From NCBI GenBank assembly GCA_965153455.1, contig OZ234493.1, positions 16,544,213-16,608,212 on the forward strand: a stretch of 64,000 bases of DNA, in the 5' to 3' direction. The position numbers were made by a program, and so were the translations under genes. The notes under the pieces are model-generated. The model saw only the letters and a list, made by a program, of their open reading frames with translations. It searched no databases and was not told the origin of the DNA. The DNA is from Sphagnum compactum (Eukaryota). Shown one piece after another: positions 3,801 through 44,469 of this stretch (position 1 is its first letter; every line of letters starts with the position of its first letter).

Positions 3801-3819
3801 ATCATTTAAATAACACAAA

Positions 3820-4346
3820 ATCAAGGGAGCACCGAAATCCAATATAGACCATGTAGTTGGTTGCATAGGTAATCTTGGTCTGCCTACATGAGGGCGGCCT
3901 TTAAAGAGAGGGCTCACGCTATGGAAATTCCAGAAGAAATCCTGCAGGCTCTGTTTACCATGTACGCAGAAGGAAACGATGCGCCCCTAGATTTTCTTTT
4001 TGTTTGCTGTGTGCTCTCGTTTAACCGTCTTGGTCTTGAGAGAAGGCCTCGCACAGCTTCTTGTCGCATAAATTTAGGCGTGGGCTTGAGGTTTTTTATT
4101 TGAAATCCTCTAGGGTCCAAAATTCATAGCAAAATGGTCGCAGGAAGAAAACCGAGAGGAATGTTAAATGACCTGGCCTCCCTGACTTGACCTTCCAGTT
4201 ATGCTCCTGCAGCTCTACCGGTTCCCCTCGGTTTCCTTGTTGTTGGAATTTTCCTGTATGCTTTCGTGCAAGTAAAAAATAAATATATATTTTTTGCGGG
4301 CCGATCCCGTGATTGCGTCTTCGACTCTTGCCTGGTTCGGCAGGTT
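3820..4346 (-). other. Foreign GC/CpG-richer insertion (block A) inside the TPR array; possible 5' part of a group II intron (organelle-derived?)
   Basis: Abrupt composition change between TPR remnants on both sides. Minus strand reads ATGCGACAAGAAG from 4069, one change from the IIB-type GTGCGACA start. 3878-3910 is 32/33 identical to 39294-39326 in the block that carries domain V. Boundaries are approximate. Confidence 0.5.
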
Positions 4347-6313
4347 TATGTGGAAAATGTGAAAAAAAACGTTGAAACATTATCAAGTAGCCTTGGAAGA
4401 CCTTGACAAACATGATGTTATTAAATCAAGCATCGCAAATATTTTAAGGATTTTTATTAACAAACAGGTGTTGAATAATTATGAAAGAGCTTTCAAGGAC
4501 CTTGACAAGGTTCATGTTTTTGAACTAAACAATGCATTCACTTTGAAAACTTATGGAAAATGTCAAATATATGTTGCATGATTATCAAGGAGTAGCCTTG
4601 GAAAATATTCACAAGACTCATCTTCTTGACTCAAACAATGCATGCACTTTGAGAATTTTTGAACATGTTGGATGATTATTAAGAAGCCTTGGAAGACCTT
4701 GACAAGGTTGATGTTCTTGAACCAAACAATGCATTCCCTTTGAGGACTTGTGAATATGTCAAAAGGATGTTCCATGATTATCAAGGAGCCTTGAAGGACC
4801 TTGACAAGGTTCATGTTCTTGAACTAAACAATGCATCCACTTTGAATAGTCGTGAAAGAGTGAGATATATGTTGAATGATTATTAAAGACCTTTGGATGA
4901 CCTTAACAAGGTTCATGTTGTTGAACTAAACAATGCATTCACTTTGCAAATTCGTGGAGAGGTCAAAAAGATATTACATGATTCTCAAGGAGCCTTGAAG
5001 GACTTTGATAAGGTTGATGTTTTTGAACCAAATAATGCATTCACTTTGCAGACTCGTGGAGAGGTCAAAAGGATGTCGGTGATTATCAAGGAGCTTTGGA
5101 GGAGTTCGACAAGGTTAATGTTCTTGACCAAAACAATGCAATCACTTTGAGGACTCATGGAAATGTAAAAGGGATGTCACATGACTATTAAGGAGCCTTG
5201 GAGGACATTGACAAGGTTGATATTGTTCAACCAAACAATGCACTCATTTTGCGAACTTCTTGTAAGGTCAAAAAGATGTTTGATGACTATTAAGGAGCCT
5301 TGGACGACATTCACAAAGCTGATGTTCTTGAGCCAAACAATGCAACCACATTGAAGATTCGTGGAGATGTTAAAAAGATGTTGCATCACTATCAAGGAGC
5401 CTTGGAGGACTTTCACAACGTTGATGTTCTTGAACCAAACAATGCACTCATTTTGATTATTCATGCAGAGGTCAAAAAGATGTTGGATGACTATCAAGGA
5501 GCTTTACAAGACCTTGACAAGGCTGATGTTTTTGAACCAAACGATGCATTCACTTTGAGTGTTCGTGGAGATGTCAAAAGGATGCTAAATGACTATCAAG
5601 GAGCCTTGGAAGACCTTGACAAGGCTGATATCCTTGAACCAAACAATGCATTCACTTTGAGGAGCCGTGGAGATGTCAAAAGGATGCTACATGACTATCA
5701 AGGAGCCTTGCAGGACCTTGACAAAGCTGATGTTCTTGACCCAAACGATGCATTCACTTTGAATGTTCGTGGAGTTGTCAAAAGGATGCTACTTGACTAT
5801 CAAGGAGCCTTACAAGACCTTGACAAGGTTGATGTTCTTGAACCAAACGATGCATTCACTTTGAGTGTTCGTGGAGATGTCAAAAGGAAGCTGGATGATT
5901 ATCAAGAAGCCTTGGAAGACCTTCACAAGGCTGATGTTCTTGAACCAAACGATGCATTCGCTTTGACTGTTCGTGGAGATGTCAAAAGGAAGCTAGATGA
6001 CTATCAAGGAGCCTTGGAAGACCTTGACAAGGCTGATGTTCTTGAACCAAAGGATGCATTCACTTTGAGTGTTCTTGGAGATGTCAAAAGGAGGCTAAAT
6101 GACTATCAAGGAGCCTTGCAAGACCTTGACAAAGCTAATGTTCTTGAACCAAACGATGCATTCACTTTGAGAAGTCGTGGAGATGTCAAAAGGATGTTAG
6201 TTGACTATCAAGGAGCCTTGCAAGACCTTGACAAGGCTGATGTTCTTGAACCAAACGATGCATTCACTTTGAATGTTCGTGGAGCTGTCAAAAGGAAGTT
6301 GTATGATTATTAA
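4347..6313 (+). pseudogene. 5' portion of the TPR array, disconnected from the kinase ORF by stops and frameshifts
   Basis: Frameshifts in 4347-5190. TAA replaces the Gln codon of DYQ at 4680, 4884, 5189, 5291 and 6311. Units between 5294 and 6310 are otherwise intact and in frame with the downstream ORF. Confidence 0.75.
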
Positions 6314-8605
6314 GGAGCCTTGCAAGACCTTGACAAGGCTGATGTTCTTGAACCAAACGATGCATTCACTTTGAGTGTTCGTGGAAATGTCAAAAGGATG
6401 CTACTTGATTATCAAGGAGCCCTGCAAGACCTTGACAAGGCTGATGTTCTTGAACCAAAGGATGCATTCACTTTGAATGTTCGTGGAGATGTCAAAAGGA
6501 AGCTAGATGACTATCAAGGAGCCTTGGAAGACCTTGACAAGGCTCATGCTCTTGAACCAAATGATGCATTCACTTTGAGTGTTCGTGGAGATGTCAAAAG
6601 GAAGCTACTTGACTATCAAGGAGCCTTGCAAGACCTTTACAAAGCTTATGTTCTTGAATCAAACGATGCATTCACTTTGAAGAGTCGTGGAGATGTCAAA
6701 AGGATGTTAGTTGACTATCAAGGAGCCTTGGAAGACCTTGACAAGGCTGATGTTCTTGAACCAAACGATGCATTCACTTTGACCGTTCGTGGAGCTGTCA
6801 AAAGGAAGCTCGATGACTATCAAGGAGCCTTGGAACACCTTGACAAGGCTTATGTTCTTGAACCAAACGATGCATTCACTTTGAGTGTTCGTGGAGATGT
6901 CAAAAGGAAGCTCGATGACTATCAAGGAGCCTTGCAAGACCTTGACAAAGCTGATGTTCTTGAACCAAACGATGCATTCACTTTGAATGTTCGTGGAGAT
7001 GTCAAAAGGAAGCTAGATGACTATCAAGGAGCCTTGCAAGACCTTGACAAGGCTGATGTTCTTGAACCAAACGATGCATTCACTTTGAGTGTTCGTGGAG
7101 ATGTCAAAAGGAAGCTAGATGACTATCAAGGAGCCTTGGAAGACCTTGACAAAGCTAATGTTCTTGAACCAAACGATGCATTCACTTTGAGTGTTCGTGG
7201 AGATGTCAAAAAGAAGTTGGATGACTATCAAGGAGCCTTGGAAGACCTTCAGAAAGCTTATGTTTTTGAACCAAATGATGCATTCACTTTGAGGAGTCGT
7301 GGAGATGTCAAAAGGAAGTTGTATGACTATCAAGGAGCTTCGGAAGACCTTGACAAGGCTGATGTTCTTGAACCAAATGATGCATTCATTTTGAGTGTTC
7401 GTGGAGATGTCAAAAGGAAGCTACTTGAGTATCAAGGAGCATTGCAAGACCTTGACAAAGCTGATGTTCTTGAACCAAACGATGCATTCACTTTGAAGAG
7501 TCGTGGAGATGTCAAAAGGATGTTAGTTGACTATCAAGGAGCCTTGGAAGACCTTGACATGGCTGATGTTTTCGAACTAAACGATGCATTCACTTTGAAT
7601 GTTCGTGGAGCTGTCAAAAAAAAGTTGTATGATTATCAAGGAGCCTTGCAAGACCTTGACAAGGCTGATGTTCTTGAACCAAACGATGCATTCACTTTGA
7701 GTGTTCGTGGAGATGTCAAAAGGAAGCTACTTGACTATCAAGGAGCCTTGCAAGACCTTGACAAGGCTTATGTTCTTGAACCAAACGATGCATTCACTTT
7801 GAATGTTCGTGGAGATGTCAAAAGGAAGCTACTTGACTATCAAAGAGCCTTGCAAGACCTTGAGAAGGCTTATGTTCTTGAACCAAACGATGCATTCACT
7901 TTGAGTGTTCGTGGAGATGTCAAAAGGAAGCTCGAGGACTATCAAGGAGCCTTGGAAGACCTTGACAAGGCTTATGTTCTTGAACCCAACGATGCATTCA
8001 CTTTGAAGGCTCGTGGACATGTCAAAATAGTGTTATATGACGATCAAGGAGCCTTGGAAGACCTTGACAAGGCTTATGTTCTTGAACCAAATGATGCATT
8101 CACTTTGATGAATCGTGGAGTTGTCAAAAAAATGTTGCATGACTATCAAGGAGCCTTGCAAGACCTTGACAAGGCTGATGTTCTTGAACCAAACGATGCA
8201 TTCACTCTGAAGACTCGTGGAGATGTCAAAAGAATGCTACATGACTATCAAGGAGCCTTGGAAGACCTTGACAAGGCTAATGATCTTGAACCAGACAATG
8301 CATTCACTTTGAGGTTTCGTGCAGTTGTCAAAATCATGTTGCATGACTATCAAGAAGCCTTGGAAGACCTTGACAAGGCTGATGTTCTTGAACCAAACGA
8401 TGCATTCATTTTGAAGACTCGTGGATATGTCAAAAAGGAGTTGGATGACTATCAAGGAGCCTTGGAGGACCTTCACAATGCTAATGTTCTTGAACCAAAC
8501 GATGAATTCATTTTATCAGATTATGCCCACACGAATTGGAGTTTAAACAAATATCAAGCGGCATTGGAAGCCATGGATAAACTTCTTTTTATCAATCCAA
8601 ATGAT
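4347..8605 (+). repeat. Tandem array of ~102-bp units encoding 34-aa TPR motifs (~41-42 units)
   Basis: Consensus AFTLSVRGDVKRKLDDYQGALEDLDKADVLEPND has canonical TPR G8, Y17, A20, L24, A27, P32. Exactly 31 x 102 bp without indels from 5342 to 8503, a divergent capping unit at 8504-8605, and ~9-10 degenerate units at 4347-5341. Confidence 0.97.
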
Positions 8606-9187
8606 GATTTTATATTACGAGTTCGAAAATGGTTGAAATGGATGTTGGATGTATATCAACCCACAATAGAATTGTTGCCATTCAAATCAAATATTCAATC
8701 TTTTCCATACAATGAATTGAATCGTGGAAGAATATTGGGGAAAGGAATCTCTAGTAAAGTGTATCAAGGTTGTTGGAAAAACACCGAGATTGTGATTAAA
8801 GTTTTGGAATGGAGTGGCGACCATAATGAAGGTGCAAAAAGATTTTTCATATCAGAAGTGAACACCTTGGGATCAATTCAACATAACAATTTGGTTCGTC
8901 TTAAGGGCTATTGTATCGAAGGTCTACAACACATGGTGGTGTATGAATACATTTCAAATTCATCTCTTGACAAATGGCTCTCTGAAAATAAGATTTTGGA
9001 TTGGGATAAACGAATATGCATCATTATAGGGGTTGCTCAAGGATTGGCACACTTGCATCATAAATGTGATCCAGTTATTCTTCATCTTGACATCAAACCA
9101 CAAAATATCCTTTTGGATAAGGATTACACCCCAAAATTGGCTGATTTTGGGTCGGCAAAATTTTTAAATGGCCGGGATGAAAATGTG
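6398..9187 (+). CDS. TPR-array/protein kinase fusion, exon 1 (~21 TPRs + kinase subdomains I-VII)
   Basis: First in-frame ATG after the 6311 stop is at 6398 (true start uncertain). TPRs run directly into LGKGISSKVY, IVIK, FISEV, HNNLVRLKGYC, HLDIKPQNILLD and ADFG. Donor GTG|GTATGT at 9188. Confidence 0.88.
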
Positions 9188-9576
9188 GTATGTTCCCCAC
9201 CTTTTTTTTTGTTGATTAAGTGCATGGCATTATATTTTAGTGGAATTATGAACCTTGCAAATTTGAACACTCTTGTGGGCCACAATTTATTAATTTTATA
9301 TTTTCATTATTGTAGGTCATGGAATAAATATGATAAACAATCACAATTTAAAATGAATATTTGAAAAACACTTAATGTAATAATTCATATTACAATTTTT
9401 TTTTATGTGTGCACAAGTAATGACACAAGGATTGCAACTTTTGTTATTAAAAAAAAATCAAATTCCCTATTGGTATTAGACTATCTTGGGTGTGGGTTTT
9501 ATGAACTTCAACATTTATATTCAATGCATGCAATGCCCATTGAAATTATTGATTTTTAAAAAAAAATTACATTCAG

Positions 9577-9888
9577 ATTGCATTAGCATCAACTTCTACG
9601 CCAGGAACAATCGGATATATGGCACCAGAAATTCATTTAAATCAAGCATCGACAAAAAGTGATGTGTACAGCTTTGGAGTATTGTTGATTCAAATTGTGA
9701 ATGGATCACCATTGACTTTAGATGGAAAGAAAGTTCACATTCGCGACTTCATCCGATGGGTACGAAAGGTTCATGAAAAAGAAAATGGATTTCAACAAAT
9801 TTTTGATGTTGCAATCAATAATTCAATTGCCGGGTTTGATCAAAATGAAGCCAAATCACTTTTGCAAATTTCCCTTCAATGCATCAAG
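9577..9888 (+). CDS. TPR-kinase exon 2 (subdomains VIII-X)
   Basis: Acceptor ttcAG at 9575-9576, phase 0. Translates IALASTSTPGTIGYMAPE...KSDVYSFGVLL...ISLQCIK. Donor AAG|GTAAAT at 9889. Confidence 0.9.
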
Positions 9889-9967
9889 GTAAATTTTGTG
9901 CCAAACCTTTTATTTTATCAAAAACCTAAAATCATGGATTCGATGTAATATTTGAAACAATATGAAA

Positions 9968-11408
9968 CACTAATAAAAATCTTGTAGTTTATAACCATTC
10001 CTTGTGCAACTATGTGTGACTAAATGTTGCCTATGACAATGAATGGTTGCCTTTGAGACTAATTTTCAAATTTGGATGGATTTTGGTCTTCTTTTCAACT
10101 AGGTTGCAACTATGATCTATTTCTTCTTTCTGAAAGGTTGATTTTTCATAATGTCTTTGTTTTTTTTACAACATCATATATATATATTTAGTTGAACATG
10201 CAACCAAAATAGTTACATTATAGATACATAAAGTACATATGCTACTTAGTAGCTACACATATAGATTATTTAATAATACATACTTATCTATATGTATATA
10301 CCTACCTATTGAATGCCTACCTACCTAATTACCTACCTACCTATTTAATTACTAGGTACCCACATATGTACCATATACCTACCTATGTATTATTTATCTA
10401 CCTAACTACCTAGTTATTTACTAGGTACTTACATATATACCTATGCACCCATTAGCTACCTATAAGGCCTATTTAATTATAAATATTTATTTAGGGACTA
10501 TTTAAACAAGTATTTTAAATAATTAATTAATTATAAAAATTTAAATTTTTACTTAAAATAAATATTATCTAAATAGGTATCTAGTAAAAACTTATGCTAC
10601 CTAGTAGGTAGACTATGTAATAGTATGTGTTAGGGAATAGTTGCAACTAGGCTACAATTATGCGACTAAGAGCTACAACTAAAATTTTATCCCATATTGT
10701 TTGTCTTTTATTTCAAATTTACAAACTGTATAAGTAGGTTGGTTTGGTGTAGTAAACACATTCAATTTTTTCAATTGCCATATGGGAAGAGCTAATCACA
10801 TAAGCTCGACCCAATAGGCTACACTTAAAATAAAATTTGATTTTGTTGTAAAAATTTAGACCTAGACCTACCTACCTACCTACCTAAGTTAGACCATGGC
10901 TAGGTGGCCTAGGTGCCACATGGCCTATTGTAAATGGCCTAATTTGAAATTAGGTTAGGTACATTAAACACTTAATTAGGCTAGGTGGCCTAACCTAGGC
11001 CTAGCTTAGGTGCCAAATGGCCTATCATAAGTGGTCCAACCTTAAATTAACCCTAAATGATTATAATCTTAAGTTGCCACGTGGTTCAATCTTAGGCCAC
11101 CACATGGCAAAATATAGTTGTTTTAATTGGATAGTTGAAAAAAATTCAAATGATGCCACATGTTACATTCTTAAGCTATCATGTGTGAACATATTGGTGT
11201 ACATTGTAGTTGTAAGTGTAGTTGCAAGAACTCATCCTTGGATACATGTATAAAATCACCATACGTGTATTCTATGAAAAAAAAAATTTCATCCGTTGTT
11301 TGCAACTAGCATCATTTGTAATTGGTCGTTTGCTACTAGGCTGACTTTTAGTCGCAAACGTTGTTTGTGACTAGAATTTAGTTGCAAATTGCACTTTTTC
11401 TACTAGTG
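9968..11408. mobile_element. Non-autonomous CACTA (En/Spm) element in intron 2 of the TPR-kinase gene
   Basis: Left end CACTAATAAAAAT; right end tttttctactagtg (reverse complement CACTAGTAGAAAAA). 3-bp AAA on both sides. Subterminal gttgcaact repeats and internal cctacctac/cctaggc simple repeats. Confidence 0.75.
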
Positions 11409-11755
11409 AAATAAGTTAAATTGGATTGTTTAATGAATGTAAAACTTCTTTAAAAGGTTTGCACATGCAAATGGTACATTCAATTTCACTTGGAATTCGT
11501 TTAAACCATTTGCATGATTGATATGTAAAGTCAATTTGAGTATCCTAGTTTCAAATAACATAAAATTATGTTGTTGAATACATATATAAGTTGGTTTCAA
11601 CACTCCTTTTTTAAGGATATATGTTCAAATTATGTCATGAAAATTGAGACATGAGCATATGGTCTTATTTATTGAAGCATTTTGCCATGGTTTGATTGTA
11701 ATGTATAACAATTACATAATGAACATCTAACTTTTATGACATTTGTTTCTTATAG

Positions 11756-11911
11756 GAAGACCCAAATCAAAGACCGAAAATGCAAAAACTTTTGCAACAT
11801 TTGGAAGGATTGAACAAAAAGAAAGGATCGCAATATTTTACCACATTAATCCAGGCTTTCAACCCATTATCGAAACTAGTTGGTGCCTTCTGGGACCTGG
11901 AGTGGAGGTAG
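11756..11911 (+). CDS. TPR-kinase exon 3 (subdomain XI and C-terminus)
   Basis: Acceptor tatAG at 11754-11755, phase 0. Translates EDPNQRPKMQKLLQHLEG...WDLEWR* (TAG 11909-11911), the expected DPxxRPxM motif. Spliced product from ATG 6398 is 1085 aa. Confidence 0.85.
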   Translation, partial: EDPNQRPKMQKLLQHLEGLNKKKGSQYFTTLIQAFNPLSKLVGAFWDLEWR

Positions 11912-14771
11912 GCCTATGGCTGTCTTTTATTGACTACGTCCGTCTCTCTCTCAAGTAGAGTAATACTGCTCCTGCAGCACTAACCTAAACGTTGTCAGCT
12001 TGGGTCACTAGAGAGAGTCGACACAGACAGAGCGGATGATGATATTACACTCTTCCTCTGCAATATTACCTAGTCACTACCTATTAAGAAGAGGTGAGGA
12101 CTTCGAAAATTTCACATAGCCTGTTGTTTCCAGCAACTACAAACACAGTGAATGATTGCTAGTCACAGTATGAGACTTGGAAAAAAGAACAGTACTAATT
12201 TGGAACAGTTGGACTATTTACAGGATCTTAACAGACTGTTGTTCTCTAACGTTGTAAACCAAGCTGCCCAGAAAACTGAATACTACTTAGCCTACTACAT
12301 TAGGGGGGGGGGGGGGGGGGGGATAAACAAGCCAGCAGCAGCTGCAAAATCACTGGCGTACATAAGTCTTCTTCAGCACCTGGACACTTTCTGTAACTGA
12401 TGTCCACAGACATGTATCTGATGGATTTAATGATACAAATGAGATCGGAGGGGATTTTCACAAGAGCCCTGTGAATTATATGGTCTTGGACTTCTTGTGC
12501 AACTCTAGCTCACCTTTTTTTTTTCCCCAAAATAAATATTGCTGTTAGTGAGAACCGGCATGTAGGTTGCAATAGCCTGTCATTGTGCCCTTTATTAGTA
12601 CCCAACATATTTATTTAAAAACAATTCCCCAATAACAGGGCAACACTAGCCTCAATGCCTTGATTGTTTTTATAAAACAAATTGTGGACTCTGAGAAACT
12701 TTTTCAAATTCCCATCTTGCTATTAAGTAGTTTCAATGATATTCCATCAGCCAACAAGGGCACAGTGACTTGAGAGCCTTTGGGTGAACCCAAGCCAGTC
12801 CATTTAAATTAATTCTAAACATTACAAATATCCCATGCTAAGACTAAATCAGGGTGTCTGAGTTCAGATTTAACATTTTTTGGGGTTACGATGGCCACTA
12901 AGAGGCCTCACTCAAAAAGGTCAAGGTACCAACATGGGTGCTGGTTCACCCTGGCCAACTTGCGGCACCTACACTGATGACTGGTTGGTCACCTTCAGCT
13001 TTCCTTTGAAAGTGTTTTAAATGATGCCACGTGGCACTTTGCAAATTTAGATTGCGTTTTGAACCCTCAGGCCTACCTCCACTAAATATTTGGATCCACT
13101 TTCAAAAGGATTTGATTTGTATATTCATTATACGATTAAATTCAACATGTATATTTAATGTTACATTTGTCCATTTAATTAATTTACCTTTTGTAAATGT
13201 GGAAAGGTATTCCAATAGGTCCATAAACTCAAAGTTTCACAATTCTTTATAATATATGTTGTCATCCAACTTGACAACTTGTGTGTTTGTATAGATGAGA
13301 AATTAGATGTTTATTAAATGAAAAAATTATCTTTATAATCATTCGTATAAGCTAGGTGTTATGGATTTATTTACATAAATGTACATACATAAATCGAATC
13401 CTTTCAAAAATTGATCTTTGTTGATCTTTCCAAAATTGGCTTGGTTATGAATATTAGCTCTTGTTTCATAATGTTTTACGCTTTTTTTTTTACACATAAG
13501 TATGCGGTAGAACATTGAACTTTTTTCCCAAATGGTTTTGGGCATATATAATTATGATAGACAACAATATTTTAAATGGGTCCAAGGTCAGTTGAACCCA
13601 ACCACTAGTAAATTACTTGGTAGACATCAATATCAAATTCTTGGGTTATTGGGCGCATGATGTAATAATGGGTAACATTAAGCATGTCCTAAAGGTGATT
13701 TCAACCCACAACCATTTGCATAGTGACCATGAATTCCTCCAACCGTTTAAATGATTGAATAGCTATTTTAAATTAAGCATTTAATTTATGGAAATTTGTT
13801 TAATGAAAAATTTGAAATATGGACATGAAATATGGCATTAGACCATAAAGTTTTGGAAAAATCTATGGTCCACATAATGGTAGTTATGTACAAACTTTAA
13901 ACAAACATAAAACAATGGCTTGTAATTCATGACACCTTGCCATGTGGTTGTAGGTCGAACTCAAGTCATGTTAAATTACCCATACCCAATTGTATTAAAG
14001 TCATCCAAGATACACAATTCATCCAAATTTGTGGAAATAAGCTTAAAGTCTTTTAGTGCTTGTGGGGTTTTGGGTGAAAAGATGTCCATTCCTTTGGTTA
14101 CAAAAATTTGAATTTTCTAAATAGTTTGGGTTCCTTTGACATAAAACTACCCCTTGCAAATATATGATAAGTTTAAAATATATATTTAATAAATATTCTT
14201 TCTATAAAAAAATCCCAATGCAATACATATTTAGTTTTGTTCATGATTTGATAACATATCACCTTTACAAATGTAAGGTTGTTGCAATATGCAATTTGAT
14301 GTTGACAATAATACATCTGTTTATGACATTTGGAACAATGATTTGTTATAACAAGTCCAACTCTGCTAACATCATATACAAATTTTGGCCCATCAAATTA
14401 CATTAAACTATTACAATTCTTTAGTTAAAAAGTAGCAATAATAATAAGTTATATGTCCTATTGATGCAATTGAGGCACCTTTCATGTAATTAAAGACTAT
14501 GTTTAGGAAAAATGAATGATTTAAAGTTTAAGGCAATCAAGAATAACCTTTATTTTATAGGCAAAAATTTGCCTGCAAGTCGAGGAAAAAAAATGAAAAT
14601 TATGAATTGATTTGGGAGCATTTCAATTGCTATAAGTGGAAAAAAAAAACAATTCCTAAGCTTTTATATTTTATATTAAGTGTGGTGCCATAAATATAAA
14701 AGGTTGATTAAAAAAATATTCATTTCATATTTGGTTTATGGTTATATTTAACAAAATCCTCATGGGGGGGG

Positions 14772-27589: not shown

Positions 27590-28860
27590 TTCAAGTCCAA
27601 AATCTATGTCAATTCTAAAACGTAGGTTTTTTGGAATTGATGTAGGTTTTGATATCCATACCTTTTACTTTGCAATGTTAATAAACAATTGAAACTTATG
27701 TCAATTCCCAAAAAACCTATGTCAATGTAGGTTTTTTGGAATTGGCCTAGGTTTTGATATTCACATCTTGCGCCCATCCTATATTGATAAACATTTGAAA
27801 ATCCAAAACCTATGTCAATGTAGGTTTTTTGGGAGTGGACATAACCTTTGATATCCATGCCATGTGCCTATCCAATTCCAATAGAAAATTGAAAATAAAA
27901 AACTAGCACCCAACTTGCATAAATTCCCAAAAAATCTATGTTGACATAGTTTTTTTGGAATTGACATAGGTTTTCATATCCACGCATTGTACCTTTGCAA
28001 TGTTGATAAACAATTGTAAATCCAAAACCAATGCGAATTCAAAGAAAACATATGTTGATATAGGTTTTTTTGGATTGACATAGGTTTTGATATCCATGCC
28101 TTGTGTTAGTCCAATGTTGATAAACAATTCAGAATCCAAAATCTATGTCAATTTTTTTTAAACCTACGTTGACATAGGTTTTTCTAGAATTGACATAGGT
28201 TTTGATATCCATGCTTCATACTCTACAATACTAAACAATTGAAAATACAAAACCTAAAAATCCAAAACCTATGTCAATGTAGGTTTTGATATCCATGCCA
28301 TGTACTTGTCCAATATGGATAAACAATTGAAAATCCAAAACCTATGTCAATTCCAAAAATACCTACATTAATGTAGGTTTTTTTGGAATTGGCATAGGTT
28401 TTGATATCCATGCCTTATGCTTTGGAATGTTGATAAACAATTAAATTTTTTAAACCTACGTCAATTCCAAATAAACCTACATTGGCATAGGTTTAGATAT
28501 CCATGCTTTGTATTCTACAGTGTTGAAAAACAATTGAAAATTCAAAACCTATGTCAATTCCCCAACAACCAACAAAAAATGTTAATGTAAGTTTTTTGGG
28601 AATTGATGTAGGTTTTAATATGCATTTTTTACTTTGCAATGTTGATAAACAATTGAAAATATAAACCTACATCAATCCCCCAAAAACCTATGTCAATGAA
28701 GGTTTTTTAGGATTTGGGAATGAACATAGGTTTTGATATCCATGCCTTGCCCCCTTGCAATGTTGATAAACAATTGAAATCCAAAATCAACACTAATTCC
28801 CAAAAAACTTATCTTGATTTATGTTTTTAAAAAATTGATGTGGGTTTTGGTATCCTTTTC
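27590..28860. repeat. Tandem array (~11 units, ~110-125 bp) of internally palindromic units
   Basis: Unit: aaatccaaaacctatgtcaattcc...aaacctatgtcaatgtaggttttttggaattgacataggttttgatatccatgc[variable]caatgttgataaacaattg. aaaacctatgtcaattcc is the reverse complement of ggaattgacataggtttt. Confidence 0.9.
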
Positions 28861-28947: not shown

Positions 28948-29914
28948 TAGTGTTGGGCGGTTTTTTAGTTTTTTTGAATACCGTCCCTGTAGTAGAATGA
29001 TTTGAAGATTCAACCTTGTTCTTTTTAAAAAAATTATTTTCATATTTTAAAGACTTGGATAGGGTTTTAAAAAGTTACAAAAAAAAATTCATTTGGGTGT
29101 CAAAGTGGTGGTTAGTACACATCTTATACTAATCAATTTTCAAAGTTGGTTTTCACATACTGGTCATTATGTAAATTTATTATTTCAAACATTAATTTTT
29201 GAATGTCATGTCGAACTAAATTGCATTGAAGACGAATGAATAAACATGCAGTAAGAAGAACAACATCAAGTAAGGAATGTTGTCGAATAAGGAGCAACAA
29301 CATCGAGCAAAGAGGAGCAAGAGGAGTAGCAATGTTGAGCAAGGAGTAACAAAAGGAGGAACAACGTCAAGCAAGGAGTAGCAAAAGGAGTAGTAGTGTT
29401 GAGTGTGTTGAACAAGGAGCAACAAGAGGAATAATAACATCGAACAAGGAGTAATAAGAGGAGAAGGAACGTTAAGCAAGGAGTTCGAACATCAAATAAG
29501 GACTAGTAACTACTAACCAAAGCAATTAATCAACATAAATTAATCTAAGCAACACACAACAAACACAAAATGAAACAAAAAAAACTTGAAACATTTGTTT
29601 TATATGAAGTGACAAGTGACATCGCTTATTGTTTAACCTTAAACCTAATTAAACCATACTGACTATTGACTACCAAATAATTTTAAACCCTAAAACTCTA
29701 ACCCTAATTTTTAAAATACCATGTTAAGGTTTTAATAAAATTGAATATACATTTGATCGGGGTTTCAAAAACTTGATTTTCACATTACATAAAAGCATAC
29801 AATTGGGTTTCATAAAGGGCATCACTCAATGGGATATCTTAAAGGCTTCAAATCAAGAATTGGCTTGAAACCTTGCCTGGTTTTCACATTTATTTTGATA
29901 CCTGCCCAACATTG
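28948..29914. mobile_element. Non-autonomous hAT-like element with internal gagcaacaac/gcaaggag repeats
   Basis: TIRs tagtgttgggcgg / cctgcccaacattg; 8-bp TSD gtattttc (28940-28947) / gtattttt (29915-29922). Confidence 0.75.
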
Positions 29915-32174
29915 GTATTTTTGAAAATGTAGTAAGTTTTCTACATATGTCCTTTTCTTTTCCAATGTACAAAAACTTACATCAATTTGAGAAATTACCA
30001 CATAAGTACATTTGTAGAATTAACATATGGGGTTTGTGTTTTATTAGCTTTATCAACATTGGAAGGGGTGGGATTTGAAAAAACATAAATTAATATCCTT
30101 TGATTTGAATCCGATATTTCAAGGCATATTGAAAGTTTTGATGGAAAAGATTGCTCCTTATGTTAATAACTTTATATAGTGCAACATTTCACTAAAATGT
30201 TCACATGAAAACTAATCTTTTTTAGTCTTTTTGTTTTAATTTACAACAATGTTTCAAAGCTTTACACTTTAAAAATATACTTTGTTGAACAAGTAAATCA
30301 TTAATATGTGCACGAATTTCATAATATATTGATAGATTGGGATATAACCCATCATTCATAACATATTTTGATCAAAAAATCTTTTCCCAAAATCTATCAT
30401 GATGTATCAAAATGCTACAAGTGTTGAAATTGCCACTTTTGTGACAATTTGTGTGTACATCATAACTTGCAAACACCCTTATTTTCTTTCTTTGGAATTG
30501 GGTTCGACACAATTGTTGTTACTAGGATTTGACCTTCTTAATCATTCACTTATCACAATTACTTTCGTAGATCTTTTGGAGTTTTTATGGGATTTAGAGT
30601 ACTTCCATTTCCATATTAAAATAGTTCATGTTTTGGTACATGGAATTTGAAATATCATTTATTCAAATTTATTGATGCAATTGATCAAAGCAATTTTAGT
30701 GGAATCCTCAATGTGACAAACATAAGCACACCACATTGGGGGGGGGGGGGGGGGGGGGGAAGGGATATGTTGTGGATAATAATAATATAACTAAATACAT
30801 CTCACCTCGGGAAAGTGGCACCTATTCATTGGTTTTGCAAGTCTCCATTTTTACTTGTATCCAAGGTCACATACATATTTGCAAACAATTTTTTTCTTTA
30901 AGTTATACTTTGAAATGTCTATAATGTGCAATTATTTTAATAGATTGTATTGCATGGAAATTTATATTAAATTTCATCGCATTATAAACAATTTTCTTGA
31001 AAATTAATAGTTTTTAATTATGGGTTTGAAGATTACTAAAACTTGGAATGATAGTCATATTGTTTATAAACTTGAAAGGAATCCATGTTGTAATCATTGT
31101 CTCAATTTTTTACAATAACTAATCCTACATATTACATTTTAGTTCCATGTTGCTACATACTACCAATGACAATCAACTATTTAATTTTTTTCTTATGTTT
31201 TCATGTATTTGTGTCAATGTCAAATTTAATTTAAATTAATCTAAAATTCATGGACATGAAAAGACACATGTTAATTTGTTTTTTAAAGTCCATGTTGGTG
31301 GATAGGAAAAATGAGTGAGGTAGTTATAAAATGGAGGTAGTTATTAGGAAAGGTGAGAGATAATTATTATGAAAGTTAATAGGAAAAGGAAGCAGTTATG
31401 AAATAGTTAAGCTTGAAAATGAAGTAGTTATTTTTTAATTGTCTTTTGAATGGTCCAGAAACAACCATACAACCAAAATGGTCATGTAGAAGCGACATAC
31501 AAATTTTTTTTCAAATAACCCCATATAAACCAGTTCCTACATCATTAGAATAATGTTATATGTAAATGGGTTTTCAAAAAGTTTACATCAAGCATACAAC
31601 TATCAATACAACTTATCTACAATTCCTCAACTAGGTTTGAAATATTACTAAGTTTATGTTGAAACATTATATTTTATATATGCACATCGTTACAACACAA
31701 ACATGTTAATAAAGTTATCAAAAGATTCAACATGAATGTTTAACTATACGTGGTAACAAGGTATCATCAATTTTGGAATAAAGTATTTAGGGATCCCCCC
31801 CCTCCTCCCCTAAAACAAATGACAATATGTTAAAATGGACACTATTAACAATATATATATATTTTTGTGATTGTGGGAAGTATCATATTTGCCATCACAT
31901 TTTGGAAATATCATGCAAATATGGTAATTCTATGTGAAATCTAATATGGTAAGCCAACTTCCAAATCAAAAAGTTTCGATTCATGCATATTACATTAAAA
32001 GCTTTGAACATAAACCTTGAATTAGAGTTGTGGCTAAAATATGTTCTAGAAAAATATTTGTATGAGTCATTGTCACAACCTTGAATTTACAAAACATTTT
32101 GTATCATTTGTAATACATTTGTTGACAATTTGTGATGTGTATTAAGTTTACAAGTCATTATTTGCAAAGTTTTT

Positions 32175-32830
32175 GAATAGAGAAGTGTAACCTACACTAT
32201 ATTCATATAACATGCTAAAGACAACAACTAAAGATTTTCATGAAATCACCAAGCTTGGAGAATGCGGTTTTGGGATTGTCTACAAGGTGAATCTTTTTAA
32301 CAATATTTTAGAGTGATGTAATAATTCATTTACCTTGTTTTTGTTGTGCACTTTGAACTTATCTATATGGTTATTTCATGATCTATACAATATTGCATGT
32401 TGGACATTCTATTTCATGGATGATTGGTTTTTTAAGTCCCATTTTCTTGACATATTCAAAGAGATCAATTGTCATGGATTTGATATCTAAAATCACATAC
32501 ATCTAAATGAAATAACATTTGTGAATGTCATTGCATTTTGAAATCTGTATAAACTTAAATGTGCATGCACATATTTAATTCACAACAAAACTTTTATTAT
32601 AACATTATGTATATTTTGGTGAGGTTTTTGTTAGATGAAGTAGAGTTGGCAATTAAGTTGTTAAAAGAATCTCAACAAGGGGTGATTGAAGTTTTGAATA
32701 AAGTTGTTATCTTCATTAGTGTCAAACACAAGAATTTGGTGACCTTGAAAGGATCTTGTTTATATGGTGTACTTGATACCTTCTTGTTTACAAATTTGTG
32801 GAAAAACTAATCTTGTTGAAGTTTTTTGGG
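32175..32830 (+). pseudogene. Receptor-like kinase pseudogene, kinase N-lobe exons
   Basis: TTKDFHEITKLGECGFGIVYK ends at a donor (32287). A second exon (~32623-32830) reads FLLDEVELAIKLLKESQQGVIEVLNKVVIFISVKHKNLVTLKGSC... with frameshifts, i.e. subdomains I-V of an RLK/Pelle kinase. Confidence 0.8.
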
Positions 32831-32970
32831 GTATAATCATTTCTAAAATCCCATTATGAAGTTTTCACATGCAATGCTGAAAAACATTCAAATTAATACT
32901 CGTCACTTATTTATGTCAAAACACTTGGTGACCTTCATTCCAACTTGAAACATATTGACCAAAAAATTTA

Positions 32971-33290
32971 TGTTAACAAATAGGAGATCTACTCAAGTGC
33001 AAACATAAATATTTATTGAACTAAAACAAAAATATGATGCTCACAACACAAAACATAACATCAATAACTCCTCAAGGTTCTTGTCACATGAAATACACAA
33101 ACTTGTGCAATGAAGAAAACAAAGCCAAACCGCCAAACTATCAACACCAAGGTATTTAACTAAAAAATCAAATCACAAATAACCAAACTAATATAAGTAA
33201 AGAAAGTAATTCAACATTGTGAAAGTAACCTAGTTACTTTTTTACTCCAGTAACAATGAAACCTAACTAGTTGAATTTGAATTCTCGACA
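32971..33290 (-). repeat. Putative 3' LTR of the copia element
   Basis: Begins TGTCGAG on the minus strand right after the purine tract GAGAGGGAA (33291-33299). Left limit set at tgttaac (32971), giving TG...CA; that limit is tentative. Confidence 0.55.
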
Positions 33291-36200
33291 TTCCCTCTCA
33301 AGCTCAAATCCACTTCTAGTACACCAAACATTTTTCTAAACTTCCTTAGTTTGTCTGTACCCAAAGCCTTTGTGAAAATGTCAGCAACTTGATCTTTAAT
33401 ACTGACATGAATAAGGTTAATTTCTTTTGCTAGAACTTTTCTCTAATAAAGAAGTAGTGCACCTCAATGTGCTTTGTCCTAGCATGATAGATCGGGTTGT
33501 TTTAAGTAGTATGCTACTAATGTTATCACAATAAATGACAACAAGAGCATCCATTGATTGTCCCAAATCTGAGAGTAGTTTTTGTAACCAAACTACTTCA
33601 CATGTAGCAATTGTTGCGCCTCTGTATTCTACCTCCGTGCTTGATAGTGCAATTGTTGGTTGTTTCTTACTACAACTAACAACACCACTTCTAAAAAAAA
33701 ACATGAAACTAGTGGTTGATCTTCTATTTGAAACATTGCCAACCCATTCATCATCAGAGTATCCATGTACTTATAACTAGCTTTTGACTTCATAAAAAAT
33801 TCCACACTGCAAATTATGTTTTATGTACTTCAATATGCACCTCACTGCATCCAAATGTGGCTTTTGTGGTGTTTGCATGAATTGATTCACCATTCCAAAT
33901 ACATATCTCAAATCTGGCCTTGTGATGGTCATGTAAATCAAACTCCTCACTATGCACATGTACATAGTGGTATCCTCCACAAGGTCTCCTTCATATGCAC
34001 TTGACTTCACATTTTGCTCCAATGGAATTGAAATGGGTTTGCAACCCGTCATCCCATATTTAGACAATTTGTTTAAGGCATATTGCCTTTGCAGTAACCA
34101 TATCCCTTTAGGGGACTGGATTACCTCATTGCCGAGGAAGTAACGTAATTCTCCCAAATCTTTCATCTCAAACTTTTGCTTCAAAAGCTTCTTGAAATCA
34201 AAGATGTCTGCACCACTATCTCTTGTGATAATAAAGTCATCAACATAGATGACTATGATTGCAATCCCATGATCTGTCTTTTTCACATATAGTGAAAAAT
34301 CTGCATTGGATGTTTGAAATCCACTTGTGACAAGATATTGACCTATCTTGTCTGACCAAGTTCTAGGTGCTTGTTTCAAGCCGTACAAAGTTTTTTTCAA
34401 CCTACAAACCAAATTAGGATGTGTTTGGTCAACATAACCTGGTGGTTGTTTCATGTACACTTCTTTTTGTAAATCTTCATGAAGAAAAACATTCTTTACA
34501 TCCATTTGATGTAAAGACCATCCTTTTGTTGTTGCCATAGCAATGATTACTCTTACAGTTGTCATTTTGGCAACTGGACTATAGGTCTCCTCATAGTCTA
34601 TGCCATAAGTTTGGGCATTATTTTTGGCAACCAATCTTGCTTTATATCTACTCATAGATCCATCTGCATTGTGCTTGACCTTGTACGCCCATTTGCACCC
34701 AATTGCTTTCTTGTCCTTTGGTAAAGCTACCAATTCCTAAGTAGCATTAGCATCCAATGCCGCCATCTCTTCATCCATGGCATTGTCCCACTTGGGGTTT
34801 TCAACCACCTATTCAAAACAAATGGGTTCAACCTCCTGTATAACTCTCACCATGTACGCATAATGATGAGCTACAAAGCCATCATATGTGAGTCTTTGTA
34901 CAGGGTATTTAACTCGTGTGGATCTTCGTATTCCATTGTTGTTGTCAGGTGTTTTTAAAGCTTTCTTGGCCATCCAAGCTCTGGGAGTATTAACTGAAGG
35001 GACTTTTGATTCTTCATCCACACTCTTCTCTAAATCACTTGACTCACCATCTACATGAGAATTTCTAGATGATGTTTGAGAACTACCCTGTACAATGTTT
35101 AAAGATTTTAATCTTCCTTTCCATGGAGTGCTATTGGACCCACTAATTGAAAACTCTTGTGGTCCATTAATGAATTGTGATTCTTGTTCCACATTTGATG
35201 AAACATCACCATTTCTAGCCTCTCCATCTTTTGCTATCTTCAGTGGTGAGTACCAGCTAACCATCTCATCAAACACAATATCTTTACTCACTTGCAACTT
35301 TCGAGTGGAAGGGTTGAAGCATCTATATCTTTTTTATTCTGAGGAATATCTAATGAAGATACACTTTTCAACTTTTGGATCTAGTTTTGATCTCTTCTCA
35401 TCATGAACATGCACATATGCAATGTAACCAAACACTCTGAGGTGTGAGACATCTGGTTTCTTGCTTGTGAATTTTTCTTCAGGTGTCATGCCATGAACTG
35501 CCGCTGTGGGTGTTTGATTCATGATATAGACTATAGTTGCTACCGCTTCAGCCCAAAAGTAATTTGACAATTTTTTTTCATTTAACATGGCACATGTTAT
35601 TTCTACAACGTGCCTGTTTTTCCTTTTAGCAACTCCATTCTGCTGTGGGGAATAACTACATGAGTACTTCCTTTGAATTCCATGCTCCTTCAAGTACTCA
35701 CTGAATTCATTCGAAAAATATTTTCCCCCTCCATCCAACCTTAGGCACTTGATGTTCACACCTTTCTCCTTCTCCACCATTGCTTTGAAAATCAAAAAAT
35801 GTTGAAACACTTCACCTTTGTGTTTCATGAAATAAATCCACACCTTCCTTGTGTGGTCATTAATGAAACTCACGTAGTACCTGCATCCTCCAATGGATTC
35901 TGTCTTCGTGGTCCACACATTTGAGTGGATCATTTCCAAAGGTTTGGAACTTACATGAGTTGTTTGAACTGGGAATGGATGCCTAGCTTGCTTCCCCAAT
36001 TGGCATGCTTCATAAACTTCTAACATCACCTCTTCTATTCCAAATTTGGGAAGACCTCGAACAAGATTTTGTTTTTCCATCAATTTAAAACGTCGGAGAT
36101 TAACATGGCCAACCCGCTTGTGCCAAATTCCAATGTCTCTAGCTCTTTTTCCATGTTTGAATAACATGGAATTCACCTTAGGCATGTTCACATCCAAGGT

Positions 36201-37995
36201 GAACATTTGTCCATTCCTTTCCCTTTTTGCAATCAATTTGCCTTGGTCTTTCATGTCTTCCACAAAACATCCATTAGGGTTGAATGTCACCTGTAAACTT
36301 TGTTCCACCATCTGGCCTACGGAGACCAATTTTTTTGTTATGGTTGGAACATGAAGTACATATTTTAAGTACTTTGTTTGCCCGTTTTGCATGGACAATG
36401 ACACCTTGCCAATTTGTGTGATGGGATGTGTAGTGTCATCATCAGTTTCCACAAACCCTGGTGTTTTCAAATCCCTTGTGTTTCTAAACCATTCTTCATG
36501 ATTCGTCATGTGGTTTGAAGCTCCAAAATCACATACTAGACATTATTATCTCATACACCTATCATTGAATTTGCCATGTACTACATCATAAACAATTGCT
36601 CATCACCTTGATTGCTAATTGATGCATAATTCCCTTGTTACAGCTTTCCATTTCGTGCATCATGCTCCCTTTGATAATAGTTCTTTGCCATGTGCCCAGG
36701 TTTCTCGCAGTAGTAGCAGTTTGAGTCGTTATTTGGTTGTTGACTTCAATGATTTCCACCACAACCTCCATGACTTCCTCTTCCTCCAAAGTTTCCTTGT
36801 CCACCTCCCTGAAGCTGACCTTCATGTTGATGATGTCCACCATGCGAGCTTCTGTGTCGACCTCGAAATGAGGTTTTACCACCTCTACCTCTACTTCTAT
36901 TAGTATTTGAATAAAAAACATTTTTTTGTGATCTTCTATTGGATGAAGTACCAACAATTCTCATCCCTTCACTTATAAGTAGGGTTATTAAATCTTGAAA
37001 ATGGGGAAATGTTTCTCAAACTGCAATTGAAGTACAAAACTAGCTATAGTATTTTCCAAGTCCATTCAAGGTCACAGTCACTAGATCTTCATCATCTATA
37101 GGGGCTCCTATAGATACAAGAACATCTGCAAGGTTTTTCACCTTTGTAGAATAGTCACTGATGTTCATTTTGTTTTTTTGTAGATTATGCAACTCTTGTT
37201 TGAGCTGCATTTTGCGAGCTTGGGTATTGGTGCTATACATCTTCACCAATGTATCCCAAGCTTGCTTGGGTGATTGTGCATCTTGAATATGCACAATCAT
37301 GGAATCGGACACACTCATAGAAAACCAATACAAGACTTTCCTTGGTTTTTCATGTTAAGTTTTGTTGGCTTGAATTTGTTGTTGTGTGAGGTTTTCTAGG
37401 AGAGGAGGTTCTTTCTCATCACCAGTTATGAACTCCCAATAACCTTTCCCCATCAAGAAATTCATAATCCTAAATTTCCACACTTAGAAATTATTCTTGT
37501 CTAATTTCTCAATTACAATTTGAGAAAGATCGTCCGCCATATCTCAAGACAACTTTCAATGTCTTCTTGGGGTTTCATAAATGATTTTAATTCCTTCCTT
37601 GAGTTTCTAGGATTAGGATTAGGGTTTTCCTTCCTTAGTTTCTAGGATTACGGTTAGCGTCAAGGTTGAACAAGATGGACCTTGCATATGTATGTATGTC
37701 TTGAGTATTATACGAAATTTTATACTATACATAGGTTTTACGTATATGTACGTATTTCGTGTAATATTTGTATGGTATTAAATACATGATTTTGTATGAA
37801 GGTTTTGATAATGTATTTGCGCTCCTCAATCTTCAAACTCCTTCCTTCAAGTTCTCCCAAGTTGTATTTGCTCCACTTCAAAAATTTGTTTTAATGTCTT
37901 CTCAATATAAACTTTTGTCACAATAACTTTGCAAAGCTATGACCTTGGATCGATCTGAAATTCCGGTGAACCATGAAAAACTATGTCTATTACCA
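32971..37995 (-). mobile_element. Decayed Ty1/copia LTR retrotransposon, 5' LTR missing
   Basis: Minus-strand order gag (MADDLSQIVIEKLDKNNF*VWKFR from 37540), protease (GASNHM ~36510), integrase (WHKRVGH, 35334-36509), RT (IGCKW, HQMDVKN, IYVDD, 33777-34733), RNase H (SSTEVEY, IYCDN). Many stops and frameshifts. Confidence 0.95.
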
Positions 37996-37996
37996 T

Positions 37997-39330
37997 CTCT
38001 CAAACTTTTAGCTTGTTTAACTTCATAAAATGAGAGATCTTGCTACTTCCTTGAAATCACCTCAAACTGGGACCTGAACACAAAATGACTTACAACTCGC
38101 TCTTAGCAACTCCAAATTCTTTGAGAGTTTGGAAGACACATTAGATATATGTCTTCTATATATGCGTAAAATTTCAGCTCTATTGATGATGACCACAAAG
38201 AGTTATCTCTTTCAAAAGAAATTGATTTCAAAACTAAGGCTGAAACTTTAGCTGGTATAATGAAAATACCAACAATAGTTCTAGCAAAAAGAAGAGTAAT
38301 AACGATCTTTTGTCCCATACCTATATAAATATTAAAAAATTTACAATTATCACTCGCTTCCTTTATAACAAGTCGACTAAGTCTATTAATCTTTTTATTA
38401 TAGTAAGCATGATATCTTGGATCTTTTGCTGGAAATGCCATTTTCAAGATTATTGAGAGCGCCTCTTTTAGTATCAACAAATATTTTAGAGGCATTTCAA
38501 TCTATATCCTGAGATCCATGGCCTAATGGCATCTTTAGTTTAGCTATTTTGGGTAGTCATTTTTTCCTGTTTATTAACAAAATAGGCTTCTCGTGATTAA
38601 GAATCTTGGATTGATAATTACTATAAATATCAACAAAACTCTTAAAATACAAAAGTTTGTAGGAAGCACAAATATGGAAATCTATTAGTAGTTTTACCAA
38701 TAAATAAAAAATCATGACTAGTGCGGCTAATAATATACTAGGGAAGTAAAAATTTAGTAATAGCAATAATATTAGAAAAAGATGTGACAAGATTCGGAAA
38801 TAATAATCAGAAACATGCAAAATCCATGATTGGTTGGACTTCAAGCTTGTTGATTGAAGACCTGAAAAAAAAATCCTATAAATCATCATATATAACAATA
38901 TAACACCCTTTTATCGTATCTGCTATTTGAGCAATAAAAAAAGGCTATTTGTGGCATTATTAGGTTAAGAAGGGATATATAGTAGTTTTAAGGGAAATGG
39001 CTTGGTTCTTATCCTCCCCCTCGGTCAGAACCACACGTGCAAGTTTCCTTGCATGTGGCTCGTCCATGATGACTTCTTCGAGTTTATAAACCAAGACCCC
39101 CTAGGGCCAAGCCTACATAAGCGAAACATAAAACTGATTATGTTCAGAGTTGGTGTCATGCCATATTGTCTTTTACTTTGAAAGGGTTTATTGATTATGT
39201 TTGTAGGTAGATTAATTCAATTTGCTACTTTGCCCAGTTCGTTCCTGGTTTTTTTTTTATGGGTGCTTGATCTAAAGTATATGCCTGTGGTAAGTCTGTC
39301 TACATGAGGGCGGCCTTTAAAGAGAGATCT
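37997..39330 (-). other. Foreign block B replacing the copia 5' LTR and central RLK exons; carries group II intron 3' domains and two orphan ORFs
   Basis: No copy of the 3' LTR and no HRD/DFG/APE exons where expected. Contains domain V (39028-39061), ORFs 38557-38898 and 38103-38495, and the 33-mer shared with block A. Left boundary approximate. Confidence 0.6.
39028..39061 (-). ncRNA. Group II intron catalytic domain V
   Basis: Minus strand GAGCCACAUGCAAG-GAAA-CUUGC-AC-GUGUGGUUC: 34 nt, AGC triad, 9-bp basal stem, AC bulge, 5-bp upper stem, GAAA tetraloop. Followed by a G-rich DVI-like stem (gagggggaggata...tatcccttctt) with a possible ...cctaAT 3' end at 38959. Confidence 0.92.
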
Positions 39331-44466: not shown

Positions 44467-44469
44467 ACA

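Follow-up and report, generated by a model that had tools for sequence, protein, structure and literature searches.

Background

Mosaic nuclear mitochondrial DNA segments (NUMTs) and the capture of DNA by end joining are well described. Split and trans-spliced group II introns occur in organelles, for example in nad1, nad2 and nad5 of plant mitochondria and in rps12 of plastids. Introns of atp1 are named for liverworts, hornworts and ferns in passages of PMC10012718 and PMC3187804, and the same passages give no formal name for the moss atp1 intron.

The window analysed here is a stretch of 64,000 nucleotides of Sphagnum compactum DNA. A preliminary description of it had recognized two foreign blocks 35 kb apart, block A to the left and block B to the right, which share a 33-nt direct repeat and which, when joined through that repeat on the minus strand, were thought to look like the two halves of a single group II intron, complementary to each other and in permuted order. 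According to the present analysis both blocks are very probably mosaic NUMTs in moss nuclear DNA and without function, nothing in them being spliced or permuted. The surroundings are nuclear and include a TPR-kinase gene, copia reverse transcriptase and integrase, and a CCCH zinc-finger gene. The features of the two blocks are listed in Table 1.

Table 1. Features of blocks A and B (window coordinates; a dot indicates no strand)
Feature	Position	Strand	Remarks
Degenerate TPR unit left of block A	3737..3811	+	similarity stops at phase ~47-51 of the 102-nt unit
Left part of block A, filler or decayed fragment	3812..3877	.	between the end of TPR similarity and the atp1 scrap; no match in loci
Repeat copy 1	3878..3910	+	3879-3910 is the true 32-nt overlap
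atp1 group II intron fragment, sense orientation	3879..3923	+	L001:201-245, 45/45
Rest of block A	3924..4350	.	GC 0.457 vs ~0.29-0.30 in flanks; 19 CpG; supposed intron 5' end (4069) lies inside
TPR units right of block A	4351..4592	+	similarity resumes at phase ~57-63; the flanks continue each other
P1, high-depth piece	38300..38813	.	extends left of 38300; native continuation differs after 38816
P2, high-depth piece	38814..39004	.	flanked natively by sequences of its own, left and right; loose ends 38814, 39004 (records 3 and 9)
P3, 3' portion of a different organelle group II intron	39005..39236	-	DV 39028-39061 and start of DVI only; cut at 39004
P4, atp1 group II intron fragment, sense orientation	39237..39326	+	L001:143-232; loose ends 39237, 39326
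Repeat copy 2	39294..39326	+	compared with the organelle version, C>T at 39299 and loss of 1 nt after 39294

The direct repeat and its native source

The 33-nt repeat reported earlier was confirmed. Both copies lie on the same strand and are identical in 32 of the 33 positions, and the 33-mer had two matches in the window versus none in 100 shuffles. Self-BLAST did not detect a second repeat common to the two regions.

A 27-nt core shared by the two copies was searched for in 241 million records and was present in 13 metagenome loci. All 13 included the flank found on the side of block B, the repeat, and the 13 nt found on the side of block A as one uninterrupted sequence, followed by sequence absent from the window. 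Two of the loci, L004 and L001, come from contigs of 141,455 and 98,305 nt, respectively, both of which contain exons of atp1 together with nad9 and group II DVs. Within atp1 the core sits on the sense strand between exon 1 (ending in ...GLSVSRV) and exon 2 (...GSAAQLKAMKQV), approximately 1.1 kb upstream of the DV of the atp1 intron (L001:1352-1417, 37.1 bits, E 4e-05). Natively the repeat is thus situated mid-way in an atp1 group II intron of approximately 2.9 kb, and its native sense corresponds to the plus strand of the window, opposite to the DV present in the window. This orientation speaks against the two blocks being halves of one intron.

The atp1 piece in block A was identical to the intron in all 45 positions compared. 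The piece in block B agreed with it in 87 of 91 aligned columns (~96%), the differences being two C>T changes and two one-base indels. The two pieces, L001:201-245 and L001:143-232, overlap by 32 nt, and this overlap constitutes the "direct repeat". The homologous part is only 32 nt long: in block A the first G of the 33-mer lies outside the atp1 piece, and in block B the alignment crosses a 1-nt deletion at that G. Paralogous introns had been suggested as the source of the two copies, but both derive from one and the same atp1 intron, and it is the DV that comes from a different one.

The 27-nt core was also found in several further contexts in moss-derived contigs, which also counts against the two blocks being halves of one intron. 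All the runs with a matching stretch were moss or moss-metagenome runs. In L005, L006 and L008 the same atp1 piece adjoins organelle rRNA fragments, which indicates that mosaic NUMTs recur in these genomes. Mosaic NUMTs of small size appear to be numerous in this moss lineage.

Block A, an insertion in the TPR array

Block A is a simple insertion of approximately 540 nt, from ~3812 to ~4350, that sits within a single TPR unit of the repeat array in the TPR-kinase gene. Similarity to the TPR units ends at 3807/3811 and restarts at 4351/4357 within the same 102-nt unit, and block A is therefore a self-contained insertion. The preliminary description had let this foreign block end at 4069. Since the GC-richer foreign sequence extends approximately 280 nt past that position, the supposed 5' end of the intron is internal to the block, which is a further argument against a split intron.

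The junction 3923/3924 at the right end of the atp1 scrap was set by comparison with all 13 loci. Neither 3812-3877 nor 3924-4350 had a match in the loci, which total 91 kb (word size 7, E<=0.1). A 24-mer of block A and the 34-mer of the DV had no matches in genome_contigs, a blank that is informative only in giving no sign of a bacterial source. In viral_contigs both were likewise without matches, as was the 27-mer core used there as a positive control; that collection evidently does not include DNA of this moss, and its blanks carry no information. The composition of 3924-4350 (GC 0.457 versus ~0.30) and its link to the atp1 scrap suggest that this part is also mitochondrial.

Block B, a mosaic of organelle pieces

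Block B was compared with contigs of four runs, three of DNA and one of RNA, all of them assembled data with one depth figure per contig, in which rare forms are invisible. Contig depth was at organelle level in all four runs. In run X1 the mean contig depth was 243-1295 over 38300-39325 versus 5-230 beyond 39326, and the contig matching the flank exactly had a depth of 22. The left edge of the block had previously been placed at 38959; the high-depth foreign stretch actually reaches left to at least 38300.

Loose ends, at which the contigs go on into sequence unlike the window, were detected at 38814/38816, 39004, 39237 and 39326, in up to four runs each. Records 6, 13 and 21 match P3 up to 39237 and are unlike the window from there on, while record 14 (2581 nt) matches 39237-39326 only and has atp1-intron sequence on either side. 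The contigs with the DV and those with the 33-mer thus have different neighbours at 39237 and map to unrelated loci. Since the piece with the DV runs natively into other sequence than the piece with the 33-mer, the two are joined only in the nucleus. A split intron is contradicted also by the DV contigs themselves, which have organelle-level depth and beyond 39237 resemble neither the 33-mer nor block A. The RNA contigs over P2-P4 had native organelle flanks and not the junctions of the window.

Among the 17 differences listed between the window and the contigs within 38481-39154, 16 had A or T in the window and G or C in the contigs. These are changes of the C>T / G>A type in the window and represent C>T decay of the nuclear copy.

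The three leftmost pieces (38300-38813, 38814-39004 and 39005-39236) had no match in the 91 kb of loci (word size 7, E<=0.1). A mitochondrial origin is suggested for both P1 and P2. The RNA run X16 had almost no contigs over 38300-38812, a gap that was given no weight as evidence, and the DNA depth of P1 was high; P1 could be either organelle DNA or a multi-copy nuclear repeat. It was also considered as an LTR of the neighbouring copia element, and this was ruled out as it has no partner in the window.

In this search of the 91 kb the sole match lay outside these pieces, between 37700-38299 and L013 (46 nt, 74%, E 0.003), and was taken as chance.

Group II intron features

Both DV and DVI had been recognized in block B, and of these the DV stands. 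Rfam family RF00029 matches 38959-39063 on the minus strand with 52.7 bits versus a gathering score of 40, and the DV at 39028-39061 is fully paired and lies entirely in piece P3. For DVI the alignment is weak: it has an insertion of 22 nt, its posterior values are low, and two of its pairs are non-standard. Breakpoint 39004 cuts through this supposed DVI, separating its two strands before any branch site or 3' end, and the contigs diverge on both sides of it. The apparent 3' strand of DVI and 3' end of the intron are false and are supplied by P2.

Block A was searched over 3700-4500. No Rfam group II family matched at E<=10; as far as the matches show, there is no plant-mitochondrial domain I model among the families. 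The only three Rfam matches on this stretch were SNORD47, RsmY and MIR5048, all far under their gathering scores. Group II homology in block A is confined to the 45-nt atp1 scrap.

The IIB-like 5' end proposed at 4069 fared in a similar way. The string itself is present, ATGCGACAAGAAG being found on the minus strand at 4069-4057 with ATGCGAC at 4069. The motif RTGCGAC is at chance level (3 found versus 1.67 expected; 20 of 100 shuffles reach 3), and the RNA 4069->3878 showed no excess of folding (z +0.62; 147 of 200 shuffles folded equally stably or better).

No exon-like ORFs were found beside either block. The stop-to-stop frames in and around both blocks had no Pfam match at E<=1 that reached the curated cut-off.

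Formation of the blocks and alternative explanations

Short fragments of mitochondrial DNA would have been captured at chromosome breaks, probably by end joining, and ligated into mosaics. In block B, at least over 38814-39326, this would have produced a chain of unrelated organelle pieces, P2, P3 (minus strand) and P4 (plus strand). Block A (~3812-4350) would be a separate insertion of approximately 540 nt that starts with 45 nt from this part of the atp1 intron. On this view the intron-like RNA that results when the blocks are joined is an artefact of reading the patchwork on the strand opposite to the native sense of the repeat. NUMT fragments were among the options of the preliminary description, which favoured separate insertions on the ground that each block interrupts an older sequence; both points agree with the position of block A in a TPR unit with continuous flanks and with the mosaic structure of block B. 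The two insertions probably represent separate events.

Alternatively, both blocks could go back to one repair episode, in which, for instance, several breaks in the region were patched from one pool of mtDNA fragments or one atp1-intron fragment templated two junctions. This seems rather unlikely, and the result would still be a non-functional NUMT. That two scraps with equal orientation, at a distance of 35 kb, should overlap in one stretch of ~100 nt would hardly be expected by chance: in a genome of ~141 kb, a rough estimate for this gives ~1e-3 per fragment pair. This argument is weakened by the look-elsewhere effect, as the window was chosen because of the repeat. The scraps also have outer positions in the two clusters: in A, 3879-3923 is close to the left edge, and in B, 39237-39326 is at the right edge. 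Neither copy is derivable from the other, since each has atp1 sequence missing in the other. However, the flanks of block A continue each other in one TPR unit, which argues against any rearrangement linking the two sites. The atp1 piece in B differs from the intron in 4 of 91 columns and that in A in 0 of 45, which hints at different ages; at the ~2.4% divergence of cluster B this contrast is not significant (P ~0.3, an estimate).

It is improbable that the pieces, instead of coming directly from mitochondria, belong to a dispersed nuclear repeat family, in which a captured atp1-intron segment of ~190 nt had been spread by duplication or by a mobile element. Such a family would fit the three non-native flank contexts of the segment, represented by L005/L006/L008 (L001:154-346), L007 (169-308) and L013 (151-319, 86% identity), the left ends of which fall within 26 nt of the left end of the piece in block B (143). 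It would also fit two more contigs of run X6 that continue differently after 39326, and the start of the segment at a T9 run, equivalent to a run of A on the opposite strand. The search, however, needed the 27-mer, and as the fragments are only 90-193 nt long, nearby ends arise by construction. Moreover, a mobile family would be expected to give more than 13 loci in 241 million records, the ends vary from copy to copy, neither terminal repeats nor target-site duplications were detected, and the copy in block A is still fully identical to the mitochondrial version.

Very improbable, in turn, is a single complex repair with one fragment of mtDNA, or of cDNA derived from the intron RNA, used at two breaks 35 kb apart, whereby the 35-kb TPR-kinase segment would lie between 32-nt direct repeats and could occasionally recombine out as a circle.

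Halves of a split, trans-spliced or permuted intron, or recombination at the 33-mer rebuilding an intron on an excised 35-kb circle, can for practical purposes be dismissed: the DV on the minus strand, the direct repeat and the ATGCGAC at 4069 are all real, but the pieces come from unrelated organelle loci and the 33-mer has the opposite sense to the DV.

Significance and comparison with known systems

Mosaic NUMTs such as these are of an already known kind, a well-known by-product of double-strand-break repair, and there is no sign of function here. The locus has therefore little biological weight. Its value lies mainly in two cautions: where only the sequence is considered, nuclear patchworks of organelle intron fragments can pass for a ribozyme that is split or permuted, and an Rfam match to DV and DVI can span a mosaic junction. 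Of minor interest is also that a NUMT landed in the repeat array of the TPR-kinase gene.

With trans-spliced organelle introns the locus shares two separated blocks, one of them with a DV. The blocks of the window differ from such introns in having no flanking exons and in being nuclear and decayed; in addition, pieces of different introns are combined in opposite orientations, and the break is a patchwork junction instead of domain IV of one intron. The moss atp1 group II intron is matched in its middle by the 45-nt (100%) and 90-nt (~96%) pieces; the window has only 103 nt of its ~2.9 kb, without the 5' end, DV, DVI or exons.

NUMT/NUPT mosaic clusters, in which fragments of scattered organelle loci are strung together, are matched in their nuclear surroundings, in the insertion into older nuclear sequence (the TPR unit), in junctions of pieces not adjacent in organelle DNA, in C>T decay, in near-identity to mitochondrial sequence (the atp1 intron, the identity comparison covering the atp1 pieces) and in the lack of coding or RNA function. 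From these clusters the two blocks differ in nothing essential, the only oddity being that clusters 35 kb apart contain overlapping scraps of the same ~100 nt.

Origin of the direct repeat

Block A (foreign sequence at about 3812–4350) and block B (foreign sequence ending at 39326) are very probably mosaics of nuclear mitochondrial DNA segments (NUMTs), the 33-nt direct repeat common to them being the overlap of two atp1-intron scraps. The repeat itself was present as originally noted: its copies at 3878–3910 and 39294–39326 lie on the plus strand and are 32/33 identical, and the two matches in the window compare with none in 100 dinucleotide-preserving shuffles. Self-BLAST of both block regions against the window found no further sequence common to the two.

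When the 27 nt identical in both copies were used to scan metagenome contigs, 13 loci (L001–L013) were identified. In all 13, the block B sequence preceding the repeat (39237–39293), the repeat, and the 13 nt at 3911–3923 on the block A side form a continuous stretch, beyond which each locus carries sequence absent from the window. Five loci (L001, L003, L004, L010 and L012; parent contigs of 98,305 nt for L001 and 141,455 nt for L004) are near-identical copies of one context, which encodes ATP synthase alpha (atp1) and the NADH dehydrogenase 30-kDa subunit (nad9) and includes group II intron domains V (DV). Exon 1 of atp1 ends in ...GLSVSRV and exon 2 restarts at ...GSAAQLKAMKQV, directly preceded by a DV/DVI (domains V and VI) match at L001:1352–1417 (37.1 bits, E 4e-05, under the gathering score). 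The repeat, at L001:200–232, is located ~1.65 kb into the ~2.9-kb atp1 intron and ~1.1 kb upstream of its DV, with the atp1 sense strand corresponding to the plus strand of the window. Plant mitochondrial group II intron families are covered in PMC10012718 and PMC3187804, whose passages on these do not name the moss atp1 intron.

Window positions 39237–39326 correspond to L001:143–232, from which they differ by two C>T substitutions and two single-base indels; 3879–3923 correspond to L001:201–245 with 45/45 identity. By these exact alignments the true homologous overlap of the scraps is therefore 32 nt, and the 33rd base, G at both 3878 and 39294, is an accidental match.

Composition of block B

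The Rfam group II family RF00029 matched 38959–39063 on the minus strand (52.7 bits; gathering score 40). Of the DV/DVI described earlier from this block, the DV hairpin stands, with perfect pairing at 39028–39061. The DVI part does not: its alignment is weak, interrupted by a 22-nt insertion and marked by low posterior values and two non-standard pairs, because a breakpoint at 39004 falls within the supposed domain.

Contigs of three DNA runs (X1, X6 and X8; organisms A, B and C) and one metatranscriptome (X16) were aligned to 38300–40000, and their fit broke, with unlike sequence beyond, at 38814/38816, 39004, 39237 and 39326. Contigs with the DV piece (records 6, 13 and 21) fit to 39237 and are beyond it unlike both the 33-nt repeat and block A, the piece 38814–39004 (records 3 and 9) has its own neighbours at both ends, and the fit of record 14, an RNA contig of 2581 nt, is confined to 39237–39326, with L001 atp1-intron sequence on both flanks. 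Since the continuations differ at the breakpoints, three unrelated places of organelle DNA supplied the DV piece, the repeat piece and what was taken for the intron 3' end; these adjoin only in the nuclear mosaic, and the blocks are not halves of one intron.

Contig depth was in the hundreds over 38300–39325 (243–1295 in X1) and 5–230 beyond 39326; the contig fitting the right flank of block B exactly had a depth of 22. In 16 of the 17 listed differences at 38481–39154 the window has A or T and the contig G or C, which is the C>T decay expected for a nuclear copy. The depths of DV and atp1 contigs rise and fall together in all four runs, so the DV-bearing intron is most likely mitochondrial too. 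The piece 38300–38813 showed similar DNA depth with RNA contigs nearly absent, and self-BLAST found no LTR-like partner for it within the window.

Block A as an insertion

Block A departs from all 13 loci at 3923/3924, past the 45-nt atp1 scrap. The GC content of 3924–4350 is 0.457 against about 0.29–0.30 in the flanks, and this part includes no Pfam-matching coding frames and no match to the metagenome loci. The preliminary description had read 4069–3878 on the minus strand as a IIB-like 5' half, and the string ATGCGACAAGAAG is indeed found at 4069–4057. Its motif RTGCGAC has three occurrences in the window, where 1.67 are expected (20/100 shuffles reach three), foreign sequence reaches 280 nt past it, and the fold of the proposed half has no excess stability (z +0.62; 147/200 shuffles at least as stable). 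No Rfam group II family matched block A on either strand at E≤10; the three Rfam matches in all (SNORD47, RsmY and MIR5048) were each far under the gathering score. The reading as a 5' half is not supported.

Similarity to the 102-nt TPR unit stops at 3807/3811 (phase about 47–51) and restarts at 4351/4357 (phase about 57–63); about 3812–4350 is therefore a self-contained ~540-nt insertion within one unit, with flanks continuous with each other. It is unlikely that both insertions derive from one repair episode rather than separate events, as this continuity favours separate sites; the unequal divergence of the atp1 scraps (0/45 in A, 4/91 aligned columns in B) hints at the same, more weakly and without statistical significance. 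Models with a single ancestral insertion, whether split, permuted or brought in as a 35-kb circle, are excluded, because they need the left flank of A to continue into the right flank of B.

Nuclear setting

The window comes from eukaryotic nuclear DNA and also carries a CCCH zinc-finger ORF. Public runs containing 37000–46500 bear the labels of coded organisms A–F, 'moss metagenome' or 'plant metagenome', which identifies the source as a moss. The TPR array joined to the kinase is unusually long and homogeneous; its frames are broken upstream of 5300, and the NUMT sits within the degenerate first units. The Ty1/copia retrotransposon, including gag-like ORFs, spans 33777–37483 (minus strand) and is broken into several ORFs. 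Positions 32971–33540 share 573 nt (89% identity) with the start of L009, so the copia family is present in related moss contigs too, and L009 is nuclear.

Dense short inverted repeats at 27600–28830 (motif like AAACCTATGTCAAT...GGTTTT; I1, I3, I4, I6–I10, I13, I16–I18 and I21) look like a MITE-like or foldback element. Two inverted-repeat pairs, I2 and I5, link 10681–11030 and 49502–49716, about 38.5–38.9 kb apart, which suggests that one element is present twice, in opposite orientations.

Features of the window and of the metagenome loci
Feature	Position	Strand	Remarks
Tandem TPR array	4554–9364	+	~37 units of 102 nt (34 aa), 75–85% DNA identity
TPR-kinase ORF	6320–9364	+	array runs into protein-kinase domain; Pkinase at aa 802–959
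Ty1/copia element	33777–36509	-	RVT_2, rve, gag-pre-integrase
Inverted-repeat pair I2			59 nt, 83%
Inverted-repeat pair I5			51 nt, 73%
atp1 segment in L005/L006	L001:154–346		non-native context
atp1 segment in L008	L001:155–277		non-native context, common with L005/L006
atp1 segment in L007	L001:169–308		non-native context
atp1 segment in L013	L001:151–319		86% identity, non-native context
rRNA-fragment contexts	L005:4272–9085, L006:7216–12029, L008:486–3255		contigs of related mosses

Other copies of the atp1 segment

Among the 13 loci the atp1 segment was found in three non-native contexts, and longer diverged copies were present in L002 and L009 (92%) and in L011 (92%). In L005, L006 and L008, bacterial-type SSU and LSU rRNA fragments lie 1.5–2 kb from the 123–193-nt atp1-intron piece; these contexts are more NUMT-like mosaics or rearranged organelle DNA. 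In L011 (1–7772; GC 0.346), a 2.4-kb stretch covering the region of the atp1 intron and exon 2 is 92% identical and has broken atp1 frames; nad3, trnW and trnC follow. This locus is probably either a decayed NUMT of large size or mitochondrial DNA from a more distant moss. All matches overlap the 27-nt core by construction, because the search demanded it. The copies show small NUMT mosaics to be common among the mosses concerned, mobility of the segment not being thereby demonstrated. Both NUMT mosaics in general and the end-joining route of their capture are well documented.
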